64,000 bases of DNA from Oopsacas minuta (Eukaryota > Animalia > Porifera), in NCBI GenBank assembly GCA_024704765.1, contig JAKMXF010000315.1, positions 214,687 to 278,686 of the forward strand, read 5' to 3'. The translations under genes were made by a program, and so were the position numbers. This document shows positions 40,305 to 55,658 of this stretch, piece by piece. Below the pieces are notes generated by a model. It did no database searches and was not told the origin of the DNA. It was given only the letters and a program-made list of their open reading frames with translations. The stretch's first letter is position 1. The number at the start of each line of letters is the position of its first letter.

Positions 40305-42641
40305 CAGGCTTGTCCAACCTACGGCCCGCGGGACCACAATCCGGCCCGCGAGAGGATTCTATCCCGCCCGCCAACATGCTCGGGAACTGTTACCAGTTGG
40401 TGGCGATATTTAATTGAGTGAAACCTATTTGAGCGAACTCAATTAGGAGAAACCCAATATTGCAAAACCAAATTGAATGAAACCAATTTCTGAAAAGTGT
40501 GATTTCAATAACTTAAAAATCCTTAAATAACTTTGTAATTTAGTTTTGATTGAGTAATCATCTGTCACATAACTGGGTTTCTCTCAACTCGAACAGCTCA
40601 TATAAATTCCAAATAATAAACCATCTTAAACAATATTAAAATAACTACAAAACAAATATGTCAACTCCCGTGATTAAAGCAAAGAAAAGGAAAATTGATA
40701 GTGAATGTCGAGTTTTCAAATCCTCATGGACATTAGATTTTTTCGTCGTAGAACACAACGAATACTTATTGTGCTTGATATGTCAGGAGAAGATAGCTGT
40801 ATTCAAAGAGTATAATATCAAACGACATTACTCTACTAAACATGCAGATACATTTGACACGCTTACAGGTCAGGTGAGAATCGATCGGGTGAACCTGTTG
40901 AAGGATAGCATCAACAGTCAACAATCTTTCTTTAAAGCCGTTAAATTAAGTTCTGAGACAGCAACAAAGGTCAGCTTTCTGATAACAGAAGCGATAGCCA
41001 AGAGTGGAAAACCATTGTCTGAAGGGGAATTTGTAAAAGACTGCTTAGACATATTTACATCTGTGGCATGCCCAAATAAGAAGTCGATAGTAGAGAGCAT
41101 CAGTCTGTCACATCAAACTGTTGCTAGAAGAGTAGATGATTTATCATCCAACATTGAAATTTCACTAATTAAACGACTCAATGCTTGCAAATTTTACAGC
41201 TTGGCCCTTGATGAAAGTACCGATGTTAGCGACACAGCTCAACTGGCAATCTTTGTACGTGGTGTCACAGAAAATTTCGAAATAATCGAAGAACTGCTCG
41301 ACTTATGTCCAATGAAAGGCACAACTACTGGGCAAGATATTTTCAATGTAGTAAAACATGTGTTTACGAAATTCAAACTTGCAGATGAAAAACTAAGTGG
41401 TTTAACAACTGATGGAGCCCCTGCGATGACAGGAAAGCATAAAGGCTTTGTTAGCCTTATGCTCAAATCAATGACCTCTCCTGTTATGACATACCACTGC
41501 ATTATTCATCAAGAACAACTTTGTGCAAAAACCTTAGATATGAAACATGTGATGGAAAATGTCGTCAATACAGTCAATTTCATAAGGTCGAAGGGACTCA
41601 ATCACAGACAATTCCAAGCGTTTCTTGCAGAGATAGGATCAGACTATAACGATGTTATTTACTTTAGCCAAGTTAGCTGGCTCAGCAGAGCGTCCACTCT
41701 AGCCAGATACTGGTCACTACTTGAAGAAATAAAAACATTCATGACCATTAAGGGAAAGGATGTGAGCTTTCTGGATGATGATCAGTGGTTGAATGATCTC
41801 GCATTTCTAGTTGACATAACTAAGTATCTCGCAGATTTAAATCTGAAACTACAAGGAAGAAAACAATTCGTTAACAACCTGTATGAGCATGTCAAAGCGT
41901 TCATCAACAAATTACAATTATTCCACCAACAATTTATTTTGAAAAAGGTGGTATATTTCTCAACATTATCTACAAGAAAAAGTGAGACAGTGAATCATGA
42001 TAAGTATTCTGCACTGATCAACAGCTTAATCGATGAATTTGAACTAAGATTTTCTGATTTTAGTGACAAATTCGATGAAATGGAGTTGTTTGGAACTGAT
42101 GCCACTAATGCTCCTGAAATGTTCCAACTGGAACTAATTGGAATACAAAATAACTCGGAGAGAAAGAGAGCTTTTGCAGAGCATGACCTTCTGACATTTT
42201 ATGGTCAATATGTTACATCGGATCTATTTCCTAATTTATCGCAACACGCCCTTAGGTTCCTTTCCTTATTTGGCAGCACGTATTGCTGTCAACAGCTTTT
42301 CTCAATGATGAAAAATGTTCAAAGCAAGTCTAGATCACTCCTGACAGACACTCATCTATCAGGAATATTACGGATTGCGACATCAAGTGTACGAGCAGAT
42401 ATTGACTCTTTGTGTAAACAAAAACAAAGTCAGATATCCCATTAGATATGTTCTTTATCATTAAAGTTTACTATAATTAAATAATACATGTAGTAATTTT
42501 TCAATTCTGAAATAATCCGTATTAACGCCATCCCCAAATAAATAACATCTTGCTACTTTGATATATCCAATGTCGTGCGGCCCTCAAGTAGATAAAGAAG
42601 CCCTCATTTGGCCCGCGAACAAAAAAGGTTGGACAAGCCTG
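40305..42641 (+). mobile_element. hAT SPIN/GTF2IRD2-like transposon
   Basis: Perfect 16-bp TIR CAGGCTTGTCCAACCT. Perfect 8-bp TSD GTCTATAT (40297-304, 42642-49). Subterminal GGCCCGCG repeats. Confidence 0.95.
40658..42445 (+). CDS. hAT (SPIN-like) transposase, open ORF of 595 aa, probably catalytically inactive
   Basis: BED finger, LALDESTD, TTDGAPAM, HCIIHQ. The conserved VRW reads VSW, and the catalytic CEQ reads CQQ (CAA at 42290-92). Confidence 0.88.
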   Translation: MSTPVIKAKKRKIDSECRVFKSSWTLDFFVVEHNEYLLCLICQEKIAVFKEYNIKRHYSTKHADTFDTLTGQVRIDRVNLLKDSINSQQSFFKAVKLSSETATKVSFLITEAIAKSGKPLSEGEFVKDCLDIFTSVACPNKKSIVESISLSHQTVARRVDDLSSNIEISLIKRLNACKFYSLALDESTDVSDTAQLAIFVRGVTENFEIIEELLDLCPMKGTTTGQDIFNVVKHVFTKFKLADEKLSGLTTDGAPAMTGKHKGFVSLMLKSMTSPVMTYHCIIHQEQLCAKTLDMKHVMENVVNTVNFIRSKGLNHRQFQAFLAEIGSDYNDVIYFSQVSWLSRASTLARYWSLLEEIKTFMTIKGKDVSFLDDDQWLNDLAFLVDITKYLADLNLKLQGRKQFVNNLYEHVKAFINKLQLFHQQFILKKVVYFSTLSTRKSETVNHDKYSALINSLIDEFELRFSDFSDKFDEMELFGTDATNAPEMFQLELIGIQNNSERKRAFAEHDLLTFYGQYVTSDLFPNLSQHALRFLSLFGSTYCCQQLFSMMKNVQSKSRSLLTDTHLSGILRIATSSVRADIDSLCKQKQSQISH

Positions 42642-46423: not shown

Positions 46424-47341
46424 CAGTCAGGGGACAAAAGTATTCGACCACACAAATATATTGTCATAAATTGTATACTCTTTCCCGTTCCTATATATTG
46501 TGTAGTCTATATTCGTAGCTGCTATCTAGTAATTTGTATAGAATAACATATGTTTTTCAAGAATTTCAAAAAAATATTTTAGATTGACACTTTTTGAAGG
46601 TGTTAATCATTAATAATTATTAGATAATTATTGATAATCAAAATATGTGGTAATTCAAAACCTATTAAGAATCTATAATTTCTGACTTGATATTTGAATT
46701 CTACGTAGGCGAGTTACCCCAGGTTGAAATTTCCAATTGGATTGAACAATTTTTACCAAAGTTATAAAAGAATTTCAATTTGTCCCACTTGTGCCACTTT
46801 TTTCAAAAAGTGGCACAGGTGGCAGGAAAAAGCGCCACTACAAGGAAATCAACTAGGGTTAGGAGGAATAAGTCGAAGTAATATTTTCGAATGATATGAC
46901 TATGCTAACCCTTGAATTCCAAAATAACCTCTTGGTAGCGGCCACTTGTGCCACCTTCGGCAAAAGGTGGCACAAATGGCACAAAATTGAAATTCATCTA
47001 TAACTTTGGTAAAAATTGCTCAATCCGATTGGAAATTTCAACCTGGGGTAACTCGCCTACGTAGAATTCAAATATCAAGTCAGAAATTATAGATTCTTAA
47101 TAGGTTTTGAATTACCACATATTTTGATTATCAATAATTATCTAATAACTATTAATAATTAACACCTTCAAAAAGTGTCAATCTAAAATATTTTTTTGAA
47201 ATTCTTGAAAAACATATGTTATTCTATACAAATTACTAGATAGCAGCTACGAATATAGACTACACAATATATAGGAGCGGGAAAGAGTATACAATTTATG
47301 ACAATATATTTGTGTGGTCGAATACTTTTGTCCCCTGACTG
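46424..47341. mobile_element. Tc1-type foldback MITE (918 bp, about 355-bp TIRs)
   Basis: TA|CAGTCAGGGGACAAAAGTATTCGACC...inverted|TA. Arms are nearly identical. Two internal GTGCCAC-n-GTGGCAC hairpins. No ORF. Confidence 0.9.
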
Positions 47342-48824
47342 TACATTGATACTAGAAACATAGACAATTTTGCTAGTTTATACCCAGGGGGTTAATCTAG
47401 GCTCAGAAGGTATAATCTGGCTAGTTGAGTTTAGACCCCGGGAATAAACCAGCCTAGTCAAGTTTATACCCGGATATACTCCGGCGCTAATGCATTATAT
47501 ATAATAATAAATATATTTTAGATGATCAGAATCAAAATTTTCCTTCATTTCTCCAACCTTTATTACAAAATTTTAGACTTTCATTGAATATTTATGTGCA
47601 TACATAATATAAACCACCTGGGTTTTGGTCGTGACAATGTAGTGATATTCTATATTGAATGCCTAAAATCTATATTACTGGAACCTTACAAGTTCTAACG
47701 TCAATTTACAAATTAATTTATATTAGTGGCCAGGTCCGTATCAAATCAGTTTGATTTGGAAAAAGACTCATCGTTTATCTACCAACTCATTCAAAAAAAT
47801 GAATTGATATTGCCAAATAATAATGAGTGAATAAGTCGTGAAATCTATTATACACTACAAATATATATATACATATATATATTAGACCATGTAGAATAAA
47901 TTACTTGTTTCATCCAGAATTTCTACGGAAACTGGGACAGCGGGAGGTATTATATTTTTATTTTTATAGGCCACTTAATATGTAAAAATGATTACCATAC
48001 AATTATTCATCACATACTCTCTGGGAATAAAAATATTGAGTATTTCCATACAAGTAGTAAAATTTACATTGCACAATCTGTGACCAAGGAATTGCCCATA
48101 AATTTTGAAACTCCAAAAGAAATGAGACAAAATTAGGCATATGCGCGGATGACAAACAAGAAATTTCTTTTCATGGCCTGATTTAATGTATTTTATTTAT
48201 TATTTATGTTACATTTTGGTTTGCCCTAATGCGATCACGAACCATAAATTTAATGAAATTAGCACATTCCACGAAAGTTAGGAGCGGCCCTCAAATAGAA
48301 CATTATGGATTTTTAAGAATATATGCTGTATACCATATATTTACAAATGAGTAGCGCATGCGCTGCATTAACAGATAAAATTTTGGAAAAAGTAGGCTCT
48401 CAAATTACATCCTATAGTGTAAAGAAATCCGCAGGTACTGATATTTATTTTGAGTTTTGTTACTTATTTCCACTTCCGGTACAACTATAGAATCCGACAC
48501 GCCCCAACTTTTTTAATGTAGTCAAAAATCGCTATATGCACCGTTGAGGAACTCGTTGAAAGAAGCTGATAGAGCTTTCGAACTCAAAAATCGGATGGAA
48601 ACTGACGAAGTTACGAAAAATCTCCTAAATAAGCCAAATCCTATGGAGAAAATTGTATTATGTAACGCTGACGCATTATTAGTAAACCATAACATAATAT
48701 ACTAGTAGGTTAACGTAGTACTCCAACCTTTACACAGTAGTTAGTAACTTAGGATAGACCTGATCTTATTTGTATTTCTATTAAACACTTACCCCCAGCT
48801 TGTTAAACTATCGTTGCGTCACAT

Positions 48825-48835
48825 AAATACAAATA
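48825..48835 (+). promoter_or_regulatory. Candidate self-priming primer-binding site
   Basis: AAATACAAATA, 1 nt after the 5' LTR end, is the exact reverse complement of LTR positions 48767-48777 (TATTTGTATTT). There is no TGG start as expected for a tRNA PBS. Confidence 0.65.
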
Positions 48836-48852
48836 TTCAGCGTCAAGATAAG

Positions 48853-51800
48853 ATGGCCGCACCCATGAATATTTCAATCCCACCCCTGAAACCGGGAGAA
48901 CGTATAGAAGAATGGCAACCACTGTTTGTAGCTGCAACTAGCGCGCTTGCAGCCCATGCTGGTGACAAGGCAGTCATCCAGATCTTGCCTTCGTACGTAT
49001 GCAGGGACGAGTTTGAGAAGGACACGACGCTGTTAGCTATAAAGGAAGAAACAATTGAAGCAGCATTCAAAGTTCTCAGCAACGCCTTAGACGCCCCAAT
49101 CGATGAGTTCGACGCTACCTCAAGATTCCGTAGTATGGTATGGGCGAGAGGAACACGTATCGAAGTGTTTTTTACACGGTTATGGAAGGAAGCAAAACGA
49201 GCAGGGTTTCTCAATCAGCAAGTCTGCATAACGTTAGTAACTCAACTCCCAGGCAAGGCGTGTTCAAGTGTAAAGAAGTGGGTACGCGAACGAGTCGTAG
49301 TAACTGATGAGCAGATGCGGGAGTTTATAGGTTTCGTTCAACAGAATTTGCGCCAGGCTGATGTGCTTTTAGATTTTGGAAGTCGAGAAGCTCCCGAGGA
49401 AAAAACGGTCGGTCAGTGCAAAGTGGTTACCGAAGAAGCAAAGGAAGACCAGCAGTCGAACGATTCAGATGCAGATCCAGTAACCCCTCATGTGTGGAAG
49501 GTCCGACAATACGGAACCGAAAGGAGGGCCGAGCGAGGCTACAGAGGCGCATCGCGTGATTACTGGCAAATAACCTGTTTTACGTGTGGCAGAAGAGGGC
49601 ATGGTTACCAGAGATGTCCAGATCGGATTTGCAAAGGGTGTCATGGGAAGGGGCATGACGTAGAAGATTGTACGACCGAATGGCGAGGTAACATCGGAAG
49701 AAGAGGAAGGAAGTTCATAAGAAAAGATTTCGTAAAAGAGTTGCGAGTTGGCAACCAGGTAGACGAAAGAGCCGCATCCATTGTGGTGAGGATCGGGGAT
49801 AGCGACATTCGCGCCCTATTAGATACAGGAGCGAAGGTCAATGTTATGGACGTGCAAACCATGCGGGAGTTAGGATTGACCAACCGCTTAAGGCCCGTAA
49901 CTGGACAAGTTTATGGGGTCGGTGGAGCACCGGTTACAGTTGTTGGAAAGATGGACGTTCCGATTAGGGTGAGCAATGAAGAAGCCCATTGGACGCGAGT
50001 ACACGTATTAGAGGGCGAAGAACAAGCTTTGTTATTGGGACGGCAATTTCTCAAGTCTTTTGGACGCGTAACGTTTGATTGGGACGAGGGGTTATTATAC
50101 TGGGTAAGATCAAGATTGATATACAGGAACAGGCAATTGGAGGGGACCCACTGGCCAGAGCACGCTCGGTAAAACAGATAAGCAACTTCGAGGACGATGA
50201 GAGAGTCGAAGGCAGCCAGACCGACTTAAAGGGCGAATAACAGACGAAGTTTGCAGCTTTGGTGAAAGAATTTGAGCCGCTATTTAACGATATGCCAGGG
50301 CGAACCACATTGTGTGAGCATGTGATAGAAACGAAAGATGCAGCACCAAGCCGAACGAGATGCAGAAGACTGCCGCCGCAATGGGAAGACGAAATCAATG
50401 CGCAGTTGGAGGAATTATTGAGTCGAGGATTATGCAGACCCTCAAAATCACCGTGGGCGAGTAACGTAGTTTTGGTCACCAAAAAGGACGGTAAGAAGCG
50501 TTTCGCCATTGACTACCGCGGGTTGAACAGTGCAACAAAGAAGGATGCATATGGCATACCACAGGTACAGGCTATTTTGGACAGGTTGCAAGGTTTTCAA
50601 TATTTTTCGGTAATTGATATCTCAGCAGCGTACTGGTGTGTACCCATGCGAGAAGGAGATATAGAAAAGACGGCGTTTAACACTCCGAGAGGCCTTTTTG
50701 AGATGACAGTTATGCCGTTTGGATTGGTGAACGCACAGGCTACCTTCCAAAGACTTATGGACAATACGCTACAAGGGGTCAAGCGCTCAGAGTCATATAT
50801 TGATGATTGTATAATTTATTCCCATTCCTTTGAGCAACATATGGAGGACCTACGCACAGTGCTGACCCGCCTGCGCCAAGCCAAGCTTCACGTAAAGCTA
50901 CATAAATGTCAGTTTGCGCGTAAAGAAGTCGAGTTCCTAAGGCATGTCGTATCCAGAAGTGGTCGAAGACCCATAAGTTCCGCGGCTGAGAAACTAGCCA
51001 ATTTCCCAAGGCCCCAAGGAGTAACAGAACTGCAGCGTTTTTTGGGCAGCCTGAATTTCTATCGTTCATACATCCCGGAGTTGGCCCGTTTAGCCACGCC
51101 CCTCTACGAATTGACAAGAAAAGGGGCTAATTGGGTGTGGAGTAATAAATGCGAGAACGCGTTTGACTCCCTGCGGCACAAGCTGATTCAAGAACCAATA
51201 TTGCTGGCATTCCCAGCCTGGAAGGAGAAATTCGTGATTGAGGCAGATGCCAGCACCACGGCTGTAGCAGCAGTATTGTCTCAACGAAACGCGGAGACAG
51301 GACAGTTGCACCCCGTAGACTACTTCTCATCCTCACTTAGCGGCGCGCAAAGGAATTATAGCGCGGGGCAGCTAGAAGCATGGGCACTTGTCTCCGCTTG
51401 CCGGAAATGGCGGACCTACTTAGGAGCCAGAGGTGAAGTTGAACTAATAACAGACCACTGTCCATTAAAATGGCTGCGCAACCAAAAGGATCCTCGGAGG
51501 ACATTCGCCAGATGGATCCTAGAGTTGGAAGAATATTCGTATGTCATAACCCACCGACCCGGCAAAGAGAACAATTTACCAGACTATTTAAGCAGGAATC
51601 CAAATGTAGCAGTCGACGAGAAAGTCCAAGATGAGAGTATCTTCGAGGACAAGGTCTTTACAGTAAAGACTAGGGTTAGAGTGGAGACCAGGTGGGATGC
51701 GGTTTTAATGCGGAAACAACAGAACCAGGACGCAGTAACGAAAGACGCACTTAATCAACTAGAGACAAAGGGAAGAGTTAGCACCGGACAACTATGTAAT

Positions 51801-53201
51801 ATCGCAGAGGGTTTAGATGTCGCGAGTGACCTACTACTTTTTCGGGACCGGGTAGTGGTCCCAAGGGAGGCTCAAGAGGAAGTGATGAGAAGAGTACACG
51901 CCGCGGGGCACTTCGGCCAGAGGAGGACGTTGCAAAATCTCCAAAGAAGTTATTTTGGGGGAGGTATGGCTAGGGACACGCGCAAGTACTGTCGGAGCTG
52001 CCTTACATGCTAGAAAGCCAAGGGGTCAAACCGGGTGAGAGTGCCGATCCAAGAGTTTAGTGTTGAAGGGCTAGGTCCGGGGGACTTGGTAGCCATGGAT
52101 ATCGGGACCCTACCTTGGACGGACGAGAAGTTTCGATACTTCTTGTGTATGGTAGATGTTTTTACACGCTACATCGAATTGGTTCCCCTTCAGGAGCAAA
52201 CCGCGGCCTCACTGATACGGGAATTTGAGCGGGGATGGATCTTCCGAGGGCATGGTGTGCCTAGGGGCCTGTTGTCAGATCAGGCCCGCAATATAGATGG
52301 GGTTGAAGTCAGGAGGATGTGCGATAGGTTGGGCATTGAGAAACGTCACTCCTCACCTTATCATCCGCAAGCAGATGGACTTGTCGAAAGGAGCATAGGC
52401 TTAGTCAAGCAAGTGGCTAGATGCTTAACACTAGACCGCCAACTTCCAAAAGAATCATGGCCGGACATCTTGCCCGAAGTGGCCTTCTATTGTAATAACA
52501 CCCAAAATGCCTCTACTAAACTCTCGGCACAGCTCTTGATGACAGGTAGACAACCATTATCCCCCATAGATGCGATATTGAGTAGAAGGAAGTGGACGGA
52601 AGAACTTAGCCACAGTCAGCAGGTAGAGAGACTGCAGCAACTCTCCTCAGAATTGAAGTGCCTAGCTGCCGAGAATGACAGGATAAGTAGAATGGACAGG
52701 AACTTTAGCAGAAATCAAGGTACTCGTCTCCACCCGTTTGCAAAGGACGACTTGGTGTTAGAAACCAATGAGAGGTGCAAAGATTCGCTGGACCCTAAAT
52801 ATAAGGGGCCGTATACAGTTTTAGACGTTAGGGGTGCGAACGTCAAGATAAAGAAGAAAGGCAAACTGAAATGGATTCATGTAAGTCGTTGCAAGTTGTT
52901 CAAGGAGGGAGCTCAGTTGTCCAACAACTCAAGTGTTGTAGTTCAAGCCGCGGTGGCGGAAGGTCCAGAGGGGAATGATTCAGGAAGGGAAGAGCAGGTT
53001 GATGCAAGTTGCGAGCCCATTGGGCAGGAGCCGTCAACTGATACTACGGAGATAGAAAGCTCAACGGAGGCGGAACTAGAACCGGATGGGCAGGAGGTTC
53101 TACTCCCGACCCAAAGGAGGTATCCTTTGCGCGATCGCAGAGCTAAGAAATACGATGACTACGTGCTGGAGACCCACCAAGACACAGGCCCATTCGTTTG
53201 A
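48853..53201 (+). pseudogene. Gypsy gag-pro-RT-RNaseH-integrase polyprotein with three lesions
   Basis: Two CX2CX4HX4C knuckles, LLDTGA protease, YIDD RT, EADAS/TDH RNase H, HHCC, D-D-E integrase core and GPY. Frameshift near 50090; in-frame TAA at 50238-40; in-frame TAG at 52011-13. Confidence 0.93.
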
Positions 53202-54731
53202 AGGAGGAGTGATGTAACGCTGACGCATTATTAGTAAACCATAACATAATATACTAGTAGGTTAACGTAGTACTCCAACCTTTACACAGTAGTTAGTAAC
53301 TTAGGATAGACCTGATCTTATTTGTATTTCTATTAAACACTTACCCCCAGCTTGTTAAACTATCGTTGCGTCACAATTAGCTACTATACTGAAATAATGC
53401 TGATGAATTCTATACAAACTACCATAGGAATGCACATATAATCAATCTTGCGGTTATCAACGCTTGCGTCAGTTGATTGATTCTTTTATGAATTTATTAG
53501 TTTGCGTAATTTGTAGTTATTGCTATTAAGAACGGTCAATTTAAACCTGGTGTGGCCTGGTTCCCAAAGGGGCGAAAACCTGGTCACACCGTATATCTCG
53601 AAAACTATAATTCGCATCGCTTAGCTTTAAAAAGGAAAACGGTAGGTCTTGGCCTCATCTAGCCAAAAAATACCACTTGGCCCACATCTAGCTATCCTAA
53701 CAATAGGTGTTATGCACTATTAATGTTGCCAAATAATCATCAAGTACATTTCAAAGATATCTTAACTAGGATTCATTTGTTGCTTAGAAAAACACATCTT
53801 GAACTAAGATGAATGATAAAGACATTTCAGTATCGCCAAATTTACTCTGTTGGTGATACATATTAGTTGTTTAGTATATCTGTACATGCGGCTTCTTTAC
53901 TTAATGATTCTAGATGTTTGTTACTAGCCTCACAGTCCCCATTACAGCTATACAGTAAGTTTCCGGATACAAAGTGGCGTAACATGCTACCATGGGCGTA
54001 ATTCCCAGGGGGACGGAGGAGGAAGTGTCCCCCCACTTTTGAATAATTTGCGATGATGTACGATCATTTTCGTACCAAATCACAAGATTTTACAATTCGT
54101 CCCATAATTTATGGATCTATGCCCTTGTTTACCAGCGCCATCCCTCACCCATGTTCCAAGTTAACATATTTTGCTCATAATTTACACATTCTTTGCTAAA
54201 GTCAGTGTGGTTACAATGTAGTTTGTGCAAATTGGGTTCCAGCACTGATTCACAATATATTTTTCAGATCGGCTAAAGGAATTTCCATAGGAAATACGTG
54301 CATTGTTAAGCCCACAATACACCATGCGACTGGATTGATTGCAACTGTTTATGCAACAAAATTGCATCGTATATGGTGGGCTTTAGGTTATATTATACCT
54401 GTGTATGATTTGACTGAAATTCCCAACAATTCAATGATCATAGTATATGAATTGAATATACGTACTACTCGTGGTATAGTTAATCGTTGATAGTAACTTG
54501 ATATCACTATGATTTTCTATCACTAATGAAAATCTACATTCCTTTGAACAAATTATACTCAAGTTACACTGTGCAATAAAATGTTGACCACAAACAACCA
54601 CATAATCTAAGCTTTAATTGTGTCGCTTAAGTAAAAAGCATTCCAAAAATGTGAATGGGTTGTAATGTATGTTAGTATATAAAGACCATTCGTACATTAT
54701 TTTGTAATATACTACTATCATTCAAACCACA

Positions 54732-55658
54732 ATGGACCACACAATATTACTCGAACCCTTGATTATTCCTGACATTTCAGCAAGCTTTTTACTGTCTGAT
54801 CTCTTTCAGTTGTCTTCTTCTCTGGAAAATACTATAGATTGGCTTAAGCATTATGGCTTGTTACCACGAGGAGTCCAGTGCAGATGCGGCTCAATAATGT
54901 ATGTAGGTACATTTACCGATTCTAAGGACAATAAGAAATGGAGATGTAGAGCGTGTAAGACAACCTGTTCACTTCGTTATGAGTCTTTCTTCAAGGGTTC
55001 AAACCTATCTATTCCCTCACAAATGCAGTTCTTGTATTTTTGGAGTGAAGATATACAGTCACACGCATTTCTTGAGAAACGATTGCAATGGTCTCCGAAT
55101 ACTGTTGTGAACTGGAAGAATTTTATGAGAGATATTTGCATTGAGGATCTAATAATAAATCAGGAGCCAATAGGTGGGCCCGGTAGAGTGGTGGAAATTG
55201 ATGAATCGAAATTTGGGAGACGAAAATATAACCGTGGTAGATTACTCACTGGTCAATGGGTTTTCGGTATATATGAGCAAGGTACTGATAACGTACTGAT
55301 AATTCCAGTTCCCGATCGCTCAGGTGCAACCCTACTTCCCATCATTCAGCGATATGCATTACCTGGAACTACCATCCACTCAGACGAATGGGCTGCTTAT
55401 AATGTTGTCCCAGCTGCCGGCTACGATCATCACACTGTGAACCATTCTGAGAATTTTGTGGATCCAATTGACGGTACTCATACACAAGGGATAGAAAACG
55501 CTTGGGGTGTGGTCAAGAAAAGGCAAAGAAGAGGCCAAACAACAAATCCTGAATTGCTAGAATCCCACCTTATCGAGTCTTGTTGGAGAAGAAAGAATAA
55601 AGGAAACATCCTAAACAGCATCGTCAAGTGCATTAGAGAATTATATCCTGTTGTGTAA
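54732..55658 (+). CDS. Merlin/ISXO2-like DDE transposase (308 aa, apparently intact)
   Basis: CxC..CxxC N-terminus; VEIDESKFGRRKYNRGR, WVFG, IHSDEW, TVNHSENFVDP, HTQGIENAW. Lies between the long TIRs. Confidence 0.92.
   Translation: MDHTILLEPLIIPDISASFLLSDLFQLSSSLENTIDWLKHYGLLPRGVQCRCGSIMYVGTFTDSKDNKKWRCRACKTTCSLRYESFFKGSNLSIPSQMQFLYFWSEDIQSHAFLEKRLQWSPNTVVNWKNFMRDICIEDLIINQEPIGGPGRVVEIDESKFGRRKYNRGRLLTGQWVFGIYEQGTDNVLIIPVPDRSGATLLPIIQRYALPGTTIHSDEWAAYNVVPAAGYDHHTVNHSENFVDPIDGTHTQGIENAWGVVKKRQRRGQTTNPELLESHLIESCWRRKNKGNILNSIVKCIRELYPVV

Follow-up and report, generated by a model that had tools for sequence, protein, structure and literature searches.

How does a Gypsy retrotransposon of the sponge Oopsacas minuta start its reverse transcription if the position behind its 5′ LTR lacks the TGG of a tRNA primer site? 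Tf1 is already established as priming itself with its own RNA, RNase H being described as cutting an 11-nt duplex (PMC7175516), and this trait is regarded as characteristic of the Tf1/sushi group. A first-pass annotation of the locus had suggested that this Gypsy element likewise primes itself—outside the chromoviruses. Here, we examine that proposal in a 64,000-nt stretch of contig JAKMXF010000315.1 (hereafter, the window), in contigs from public sequencing runs and in related Gypsy proteins and loci. Positions refer to the window, and all stranded features lie on its plus strand.

A young Gypsy element within a host repeat

The element spans positions 48661-53375 and is a young Ty3/Gypsy LTR retrotransposon. 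Its 163-bp LTRs (5′ LTR, 48661-48823; 3′ LTR, 53213-53375) are identical and run from TG to CA, and direct comparison of the flanks revealed a 4-bp target-site duplication, ATTA (48657-48660 on the left, 53376-53379 on the right). Together with a polypurine tract, GAAGGAGGAG (53200-53209), located 3 nt 5′ of the 3′ LTR, the paired TG...CA LTRs and the target duplication are the features by which Gypsy LTR elements are recognized. The element ends are further supported by host-repeat contigs that run from 48660 into right-flank-like sequence, at loose contig ends. The element was present in four public runs of one sample, with at least two distinct right flanks, and the contigs of these four runs contained no variants of the LTR or the primer site.

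The insertion lies within a high-copy host repeat (48478-48660 and 53376 onward); in run X1, contig depth reached ~39,000 over the host-repeat flank, versus ~1,650 for the element interior. The surroundings are AT-rich and transposon-rich. They include a hAT transposase with a Spin-doc zinc finger (601-aa open frame, 40640-42445), an ISXO2/IS1595-like transposase of 316 aa (54708-55658) that we take to be of the Merlin type, and two 45-nt direct repeats, 80% alike and spaced by 157 nt (46785-46986).

Behind gag, Pfam searches recovered protease, RT, RNase H and the zinc finger and core of integrase in the order characteristic of Gypsy, and the closest solved relative was Ty3 Gag-Pol (E 3e-93). 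Gag and protease share a frame that stops at 50172 (48853-50172); this frame encodes CCHC knuckles (49576 and 49630) in gag and an LLDTG motif (49816) in protease. RT, RNase H and the integrase zinc finger follow at 50241-52013, with YIDD at 50796 and acidic RNase H motifs at 51240, 51363, 51447 and 51579. The integrase core and C-terminal part occupy 52014-53201, and no chromodomain was found by Pfam in this integrase piece. Both the two gag knuckles and the chromodomain-less integrase had been noted in the first-pass annotation and were recovered here. Two breaks interrupt pol: the reading frame changes between protease and RT, and a stop occupies 52011-52013. A copy with these two breaks would need proteins supplied by other copies.

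The primer-binding position is complementary to the LTR

A single T (48824) separates the 5′ LTR from the primer-binding position AAATACAAATA (48825-48835), and no TGG-starting tRNA site was present after this LTR. Instead, AAATACAAATA is the exact reverse complement, over 11 nt, of the LTR segment TATTTGTATTT (48767-48777), a putative self-primer core whose 3′ end would start minus-strand DNA. Such complementarity between an LTR segment and the primer site is a feature of Tf1/sushi elements. Two nucleotides after the core lies ATTAAA (48780-48785), a hexamer that resembles a poly(A) signal and, judging by the general anatomy of poly(A) sites, may act as one; a CA at 48796-48797 and GT-rich sequence follow downstream. 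Direct inspection and exact matching thus reproduced what the first-pass annotation had reported of this site: the missing TGG, the perfect 11-nt match, its start 1 nt past the LTR end and the hexamer. Neither a TATA nor an initiator consensus pointed to 48767.

To put a number on the match, we searched 100,000 dinucleotide-shuffled LTRs for a perfect complement starting 0-4 nt past the LTR. Shuffled LTRs held one of 11 nt in 82 cases, of 10 nt in 419 and of 9 nt in 1508, in agreement with an earlier back-of-envelope estimate of about 1e-3 or lower; when the remainder of the window was divided into 163-nt tiles, 1 of 726 had an 11-nt match. The pairing could still be a chance product of AT-rich sequence, given that the 11-mer recurs once in the window outside the element (44490), that many elements were surveyed and that one outgroup element (L084) has neither TGG nor complement, so such elements do exist. 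The shuffling result, the exact register at the primer position and seven further predicted pairs (see below) speak against coincidence, which we regard as very improbable.

Gypsy loci from other sources served as an outgroup. The 163 loci included 80 drawn from 587 metagenome matches with RT motifs and 80 drawn from 132 prokaryote-genome matches. Counted were the 14 loci with automatically called TG...CA LTR pairs, with 11 further loci excluded as their repeats lacked a TG...CA call and the remainder having no pair inside the locus. TGG occurred within 1-3 nt of the LTR in 12 of the 14 and further on in the other two, and none had a self-complement longer than 6 nt, several of the 14 being close kin and so not independent cases. 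When duplex energies were compared, at least 20 of 300 shuffles were as good as the native sequence for each outgroup element, as opposed to 0 of 300 for the window element. Two chromovirus-like loci, considered as positive controls, had no callable LTR ends and reached a best complement of 7 nt.

The twelve elements with TGG near the LTR (L004, L086, L089, L091, L092, L094, L096, L103, L104, L106, L133 and L163) are tRNA-primed, non-chromoviral Gypsy elements that resemble the sponge element in domain order, in the short LTRs of most, in a 4-bp duplication (10/12) and in RT identity (42-48%). They differ from it in that TGG follows the LTR after 1-3 nt and no self-complement exceeds 6 nt. Given the exact complement, its correct geometry, the missing tRNA signature and the absence of any self-complement above 6 nt among the 14 outgroup elements, self-priming is the best reading of the locus: the element probably primes its own reverse transcription from the LTR segment paired to the primer site. 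A primer made by splicing was considered and set aside as unneeded, the match being contiguous.

Two further observations concern the outgroup. L084 (3433-3720) is a full-length Gypsy element with near-identical 253-bp repeats, without TGG and without a self-complement above 6 nt; its RT groups with that of a TGG-primed element. Loci L084-L163 are Gypsy elements in many bins labeled bacterial or archaeal, and the five bins tested had 2 to 132 matches each, likely reflecting contamination with host DNA.

Folding predicts a longer primer duplex

In the segment 48767-48860, the core duplex was the dominant fold (mean pair probability 0.89). An RNA starting at 48767 lost the core in longer context, with pair probabilities of 0.03 when extended to 49000 and 0.0 when extended to 49200. 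With a start at 48756, the core retained a probability of 0.96 out to 49000; on extension to 49200, this was 0.12 at 37 °C and 0.71 at 20 °C. At 37 °C, extension to 49200 largely abolished the core whichever of the four starts was used. These models favor an RNA start near 48756 over one at 48767.

Folding further predicted an upstream extension of the duplex by seven pairs, between 48757-48763 and 48837-48840 plus 48842-48844. The calculated energy of the extended duplex was −16.8 kcal/mol, compared to −8.4 kcal/mol for the core, in which all pairs but one are A/U. When the whole LTR was paired with the next 24 nt, the energy was −17.1 kcal/mol and 6 of 5,000 shuffles were as stable. In a test that kept the core constant and was chosen after the fold had been seen, 161 of 10,000 randomized upstream segments extended it equally well; in an unanchored test, 514 of 5,000 shuffles were as good. 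As the core is kept with a start at 48756 and gains seven pairs, the primer may be ~21 nt long, in which case the transcript would start upstream of 48767. The folding energy of the region as a whole was not beyond that of shuffles (z −0.46 to +1.18 in the four folds holding both segments).

Tf1 is reported to need two more duplexes, in which the neighbors of the primer site pair with LTR sequence downstream of the primer (PMC10085805). Candidates for such flanking ‘pretzel’ duplexes were not supported here, with 914, 3,001 and 2,672 of 5,000 shuffles as good; short pretzel-like helices can be drawn at the site, yet they do not exceed chance. The earlier proposal of Tf1-type self-priming therefore stands with respect to the exact complement, the geometry, the missing TGG and the contrast with the outgroup, but not with respect to a Tf1-like pretzel. 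Separately, after removal of the primer segment, U5 nucleotides 48795-48804 can pair with 48847-48856, a stretch that covers the start codon of gag. This pairing was not above shuffles; a contig of a sister family (see below) keeps a CAGCTTGT-like motif there.

The core also holds a TGTA (48771-48774) just before ATTAAA, and its partner occurs only after the 5′ LTR. The pairing might accordingly serve only to mask an upstream polyadenylation element and weaken the poly(A) signal of the 5′ LTR, with priming achieved otherwise. The ATTAAA hexamer itself is unpaired in the folds, however, the missing tRNA site would be left unexplained, and a single nucleotide separates the end of the duplex from that of the LTR, precisely where a primer must sit. 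We give little credence to masking as the sole function; it may be a second role of the pairing.

The element belongs to a chromodomain-less clade

The first-pass annotation had suggested an RT phylogeny to place the element. In an RT tree of 107 out of 120 proteins (13 being dropped as short or without a match), which like the other trees here came from a quick tree search, the element fell into a 25-row clade (SH-aLRT 99), apart from the branch holding a Tf2-like protein. This clade is marked by the RNase H motif YSAGQLEAW; a second motif, DI(S/A)SAYW, was discarded as a marker since it is not exclusive to the clade. A 74-row tree concurred and placed five chromodomain-bearing rows outside the main chromovirus branch. 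With these five left out, a 39-row RT-RNase H tree gave support of 99 for the clade, 98 for the clade with P0032 and 93 for 11 chromovirus proxies, which stood in for curated references and were partly chosen after the first RT tree had been seen. A forced union of the clade with the proxies was rejected without P0032, the clade's sister row (p-AU of 0.0055), and not rejected with it (0.164).

In these trees, the element is not nested in the chromoviruses and is part of a chromodomain-less clade of single-ORF Gypsy proteins. What had been proposed as a non-chromoviral lineage is borne out by the missing chromodomain and by the separate position in the free trees, but a union with the proxies is not rejected when P0032 is included. 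A sister position to the chromoviruses is thereby retained (AU p 0.164), so that an origin of self-priming independent of the chromoviruses is no more than possible.

Three full-length relatives (P0173, P0190 and P0196) each have all domains in one frame of 1,438-1,439 aa, and none of the three had a chromodomain at E-values up to 0.1. Longer relatives, of 1,809-5,000 aa, included no close member (best identity, 44%). Searching 50%-identity clusters, which were crowded by long chimeric proteins, added P0350 and, by Gag, P0255 and P0274; an Atlas search returned only generic CCHC Gag clusters. In a neighboring Gypsy lineage (P0223, P0035), RNase H and integrase are separated by a PHD finger.

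At the nucleotide level, the viral contigs searched contained no clade members, and neither metagenome contigs nor prokaryote genome contigs matched the RNase H motif of the clade. The only locus to fall in the clade (L120) begins inside gag, without an LTR. Among the contigs searched, there was hence no relative with a readable LTR in which LTR and primer site could be compared for covariation.

The primer site is apparently retained in a sister-family contig

A contig of run X2 represents a diverged sister family. It matches 21 letters at 48819-48839, spanning the primer site, and 41 gag letters at 49183-49223, the joint being one record with the 21-letter side and sides below 30 letters being flagged as unreliable. 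As the record falls in the 90-95% class and the gag piece shows five differences in other runs, we infer at most one mismatch within the 21 letters. U5 differs upstream of the matched site, and the contig stops short of the primer segment. The primer site is thus apparently kept in the sister family while U5 diverges, which suggests selection on the site.

A kept site fits a host primer as well. If the primer were a host RNA, either a tRNA fragment or a Pol III transcript ending in U, and the LTR match were coincidental, a fixed outside primer would hold 48819-48839 constant as U5 changes; half-tRNA priming is moreover described for Copia lineages (PMC6317226). On the other hand, the missing TGG excludes a mature tRNA end, the LTR match would arise by chance at a rate of only ~8e-4, and the complement, if read as a tRNA half, would by general tRNA rules either leave the anticodon stem unpaired or place a pyrimidine at position 37. 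Three site motifs gave no match in seven supplement files of PMC13524379, among them a table of tRNA primer sites, and Rfam returned a single match (E 6.1) elsewhere in the region. The window itself held no tRNA genes with which the site could be compared. Taken together, we consider a host primer improbable and retain self-priming as the preferred reading.

A proposed route of self-priming

If the element primes itself, its transcript would begin within the 5′ LTR, no further downstream than 48767 and more probably around or before 48756. The segment 48767-48777 would then pair with 48825-48835, probably strengthened by 48757-48763 with 48837-48844 to give 18 bp in total. By analogy to Tf1, as described in PMC7175516 and PMC5341516, the element's RNase H would cut between 48777 and 48778. 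RT would next copy 47 nt (48824 to 48778), comprising R-U5, and strand transfer could proceed via ~20 nt of R between the cut and a poly(A) site near 48797. The primer segment would be rebuilt from the 3′ LTR copy, and the core match would stay perfect because the primer is itself copied into plus-strand DNA.

The primer might also stem from the element's own sequence elsewhere: from the 3′ LTR copy of the core (53319-53329) or from a short transcript of the LTR. It would then be trimmed or cleaved just ahead of the poly(A) signal and act in trans or through circularization of the RNA. The segment does occur in both LTRs, with 2 nt between its end and ATTAAA, and short transcripts are plausible since the 5′ LTR has this poly(A) signal as well. 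Yet this route needs a cutting or trimming step without precedent in the literature covered, spending the 3′ end of the genome would presumably remove the R needed for strand transfer, and the 5′ fold forms locally. It is therefore unlikely, and local self-priming from the 5′ LTR remains our favored reading.

More tentatively, and with the balance of probability against it, a deep chromodomain-less Gypsy clade—with a single 1,440-aa polyprotein and the YSAGQLEAW motif—may have invented self-priming apart from Tf1/sushi. Its version would lack the pretzel and use a ~21-nt primer whose 18-bp duplex is as long as a tRNA site. The cut would fall immediately ahead of the element's poly(A) signal, and the same nucleotides would also serve as the upstream polyadenylation element.

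Comparison with known self-priming elements

Tf1 and Tf2 of Schizosaccharomyces pombe, Tj1, Tosmo1-3 and Tf1/sushi chromoviruses are likewise described as lacking a tRNA site; the primer site directly behind their 5′ LTR is instead complementary to part of the LTR (PMC7175516, PMC4600332, PMC10085805), and the Tf1 core duplex is also given as 11 nt (PMC7175516). Unlike the Tf1/sushi group, the sponge element has two CCHC knuckles and no chromodomain and occupies a separate RT and RT-RNase H branch. Its target duplication is 4 bp, compared to 5 bp in Tj1; and, unlike in Tf1, the two flanking pretzel duplexes are unsupported and the predicted pairing reaches beyond the core on its upstream side. 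Because it lacks the chromodomain and pretzel features, we do not file it as Tf1/sushi despite the Tf1-like core duplex.

Self-priming has also been predicted, similarly from sequence, for Tcn1, for the TAR lineage of plant Ty1/Copia elements (Houba, Osr-1) and for 12% of the plant elements surveyed in PMC6317226. TAR elements are plant Copia and Tcn1 is chromoviral, in distinction to the element described here; through the TAR lineage, the trait had, per the same source, already been predicted outside chromoviruses. The dictyostelid Gypsy element Skipper lacks a TGG site as well, but differs, in the account of PMC5006619, in having a polypyrimidine stretch and a chromodomain and no LTR complement.

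In the freely accessible literature, searched by title and abstract beginning, there was no description of self-priming in a chromodomain-less animal Gypsy element. Repbase Reports are said to annotate invertebrate Gypsy families, from sea urchin and sea anemone, as self-priming, and supplements of genome papers may contain similar entries. The weight of the present case is limited in that the type of mechanism is known, has already been predicted in a Copia lineage and is seen here in one family. Such elements would be overlooked or misjudged by annotation tools that insist on a tRNA site. If self-priming holds true, the 163-bp LTR and 47-nt loop would offer a compact system for studying what RNase H requires to cut the duplex, and the target used by silencing tRNA fragments would presumably vanish from the element. 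Self-priming in a lineage that has neither chromodomain nor pretzel would then mean that Gypsy elements have more than one way to dispense with the host tRNA.
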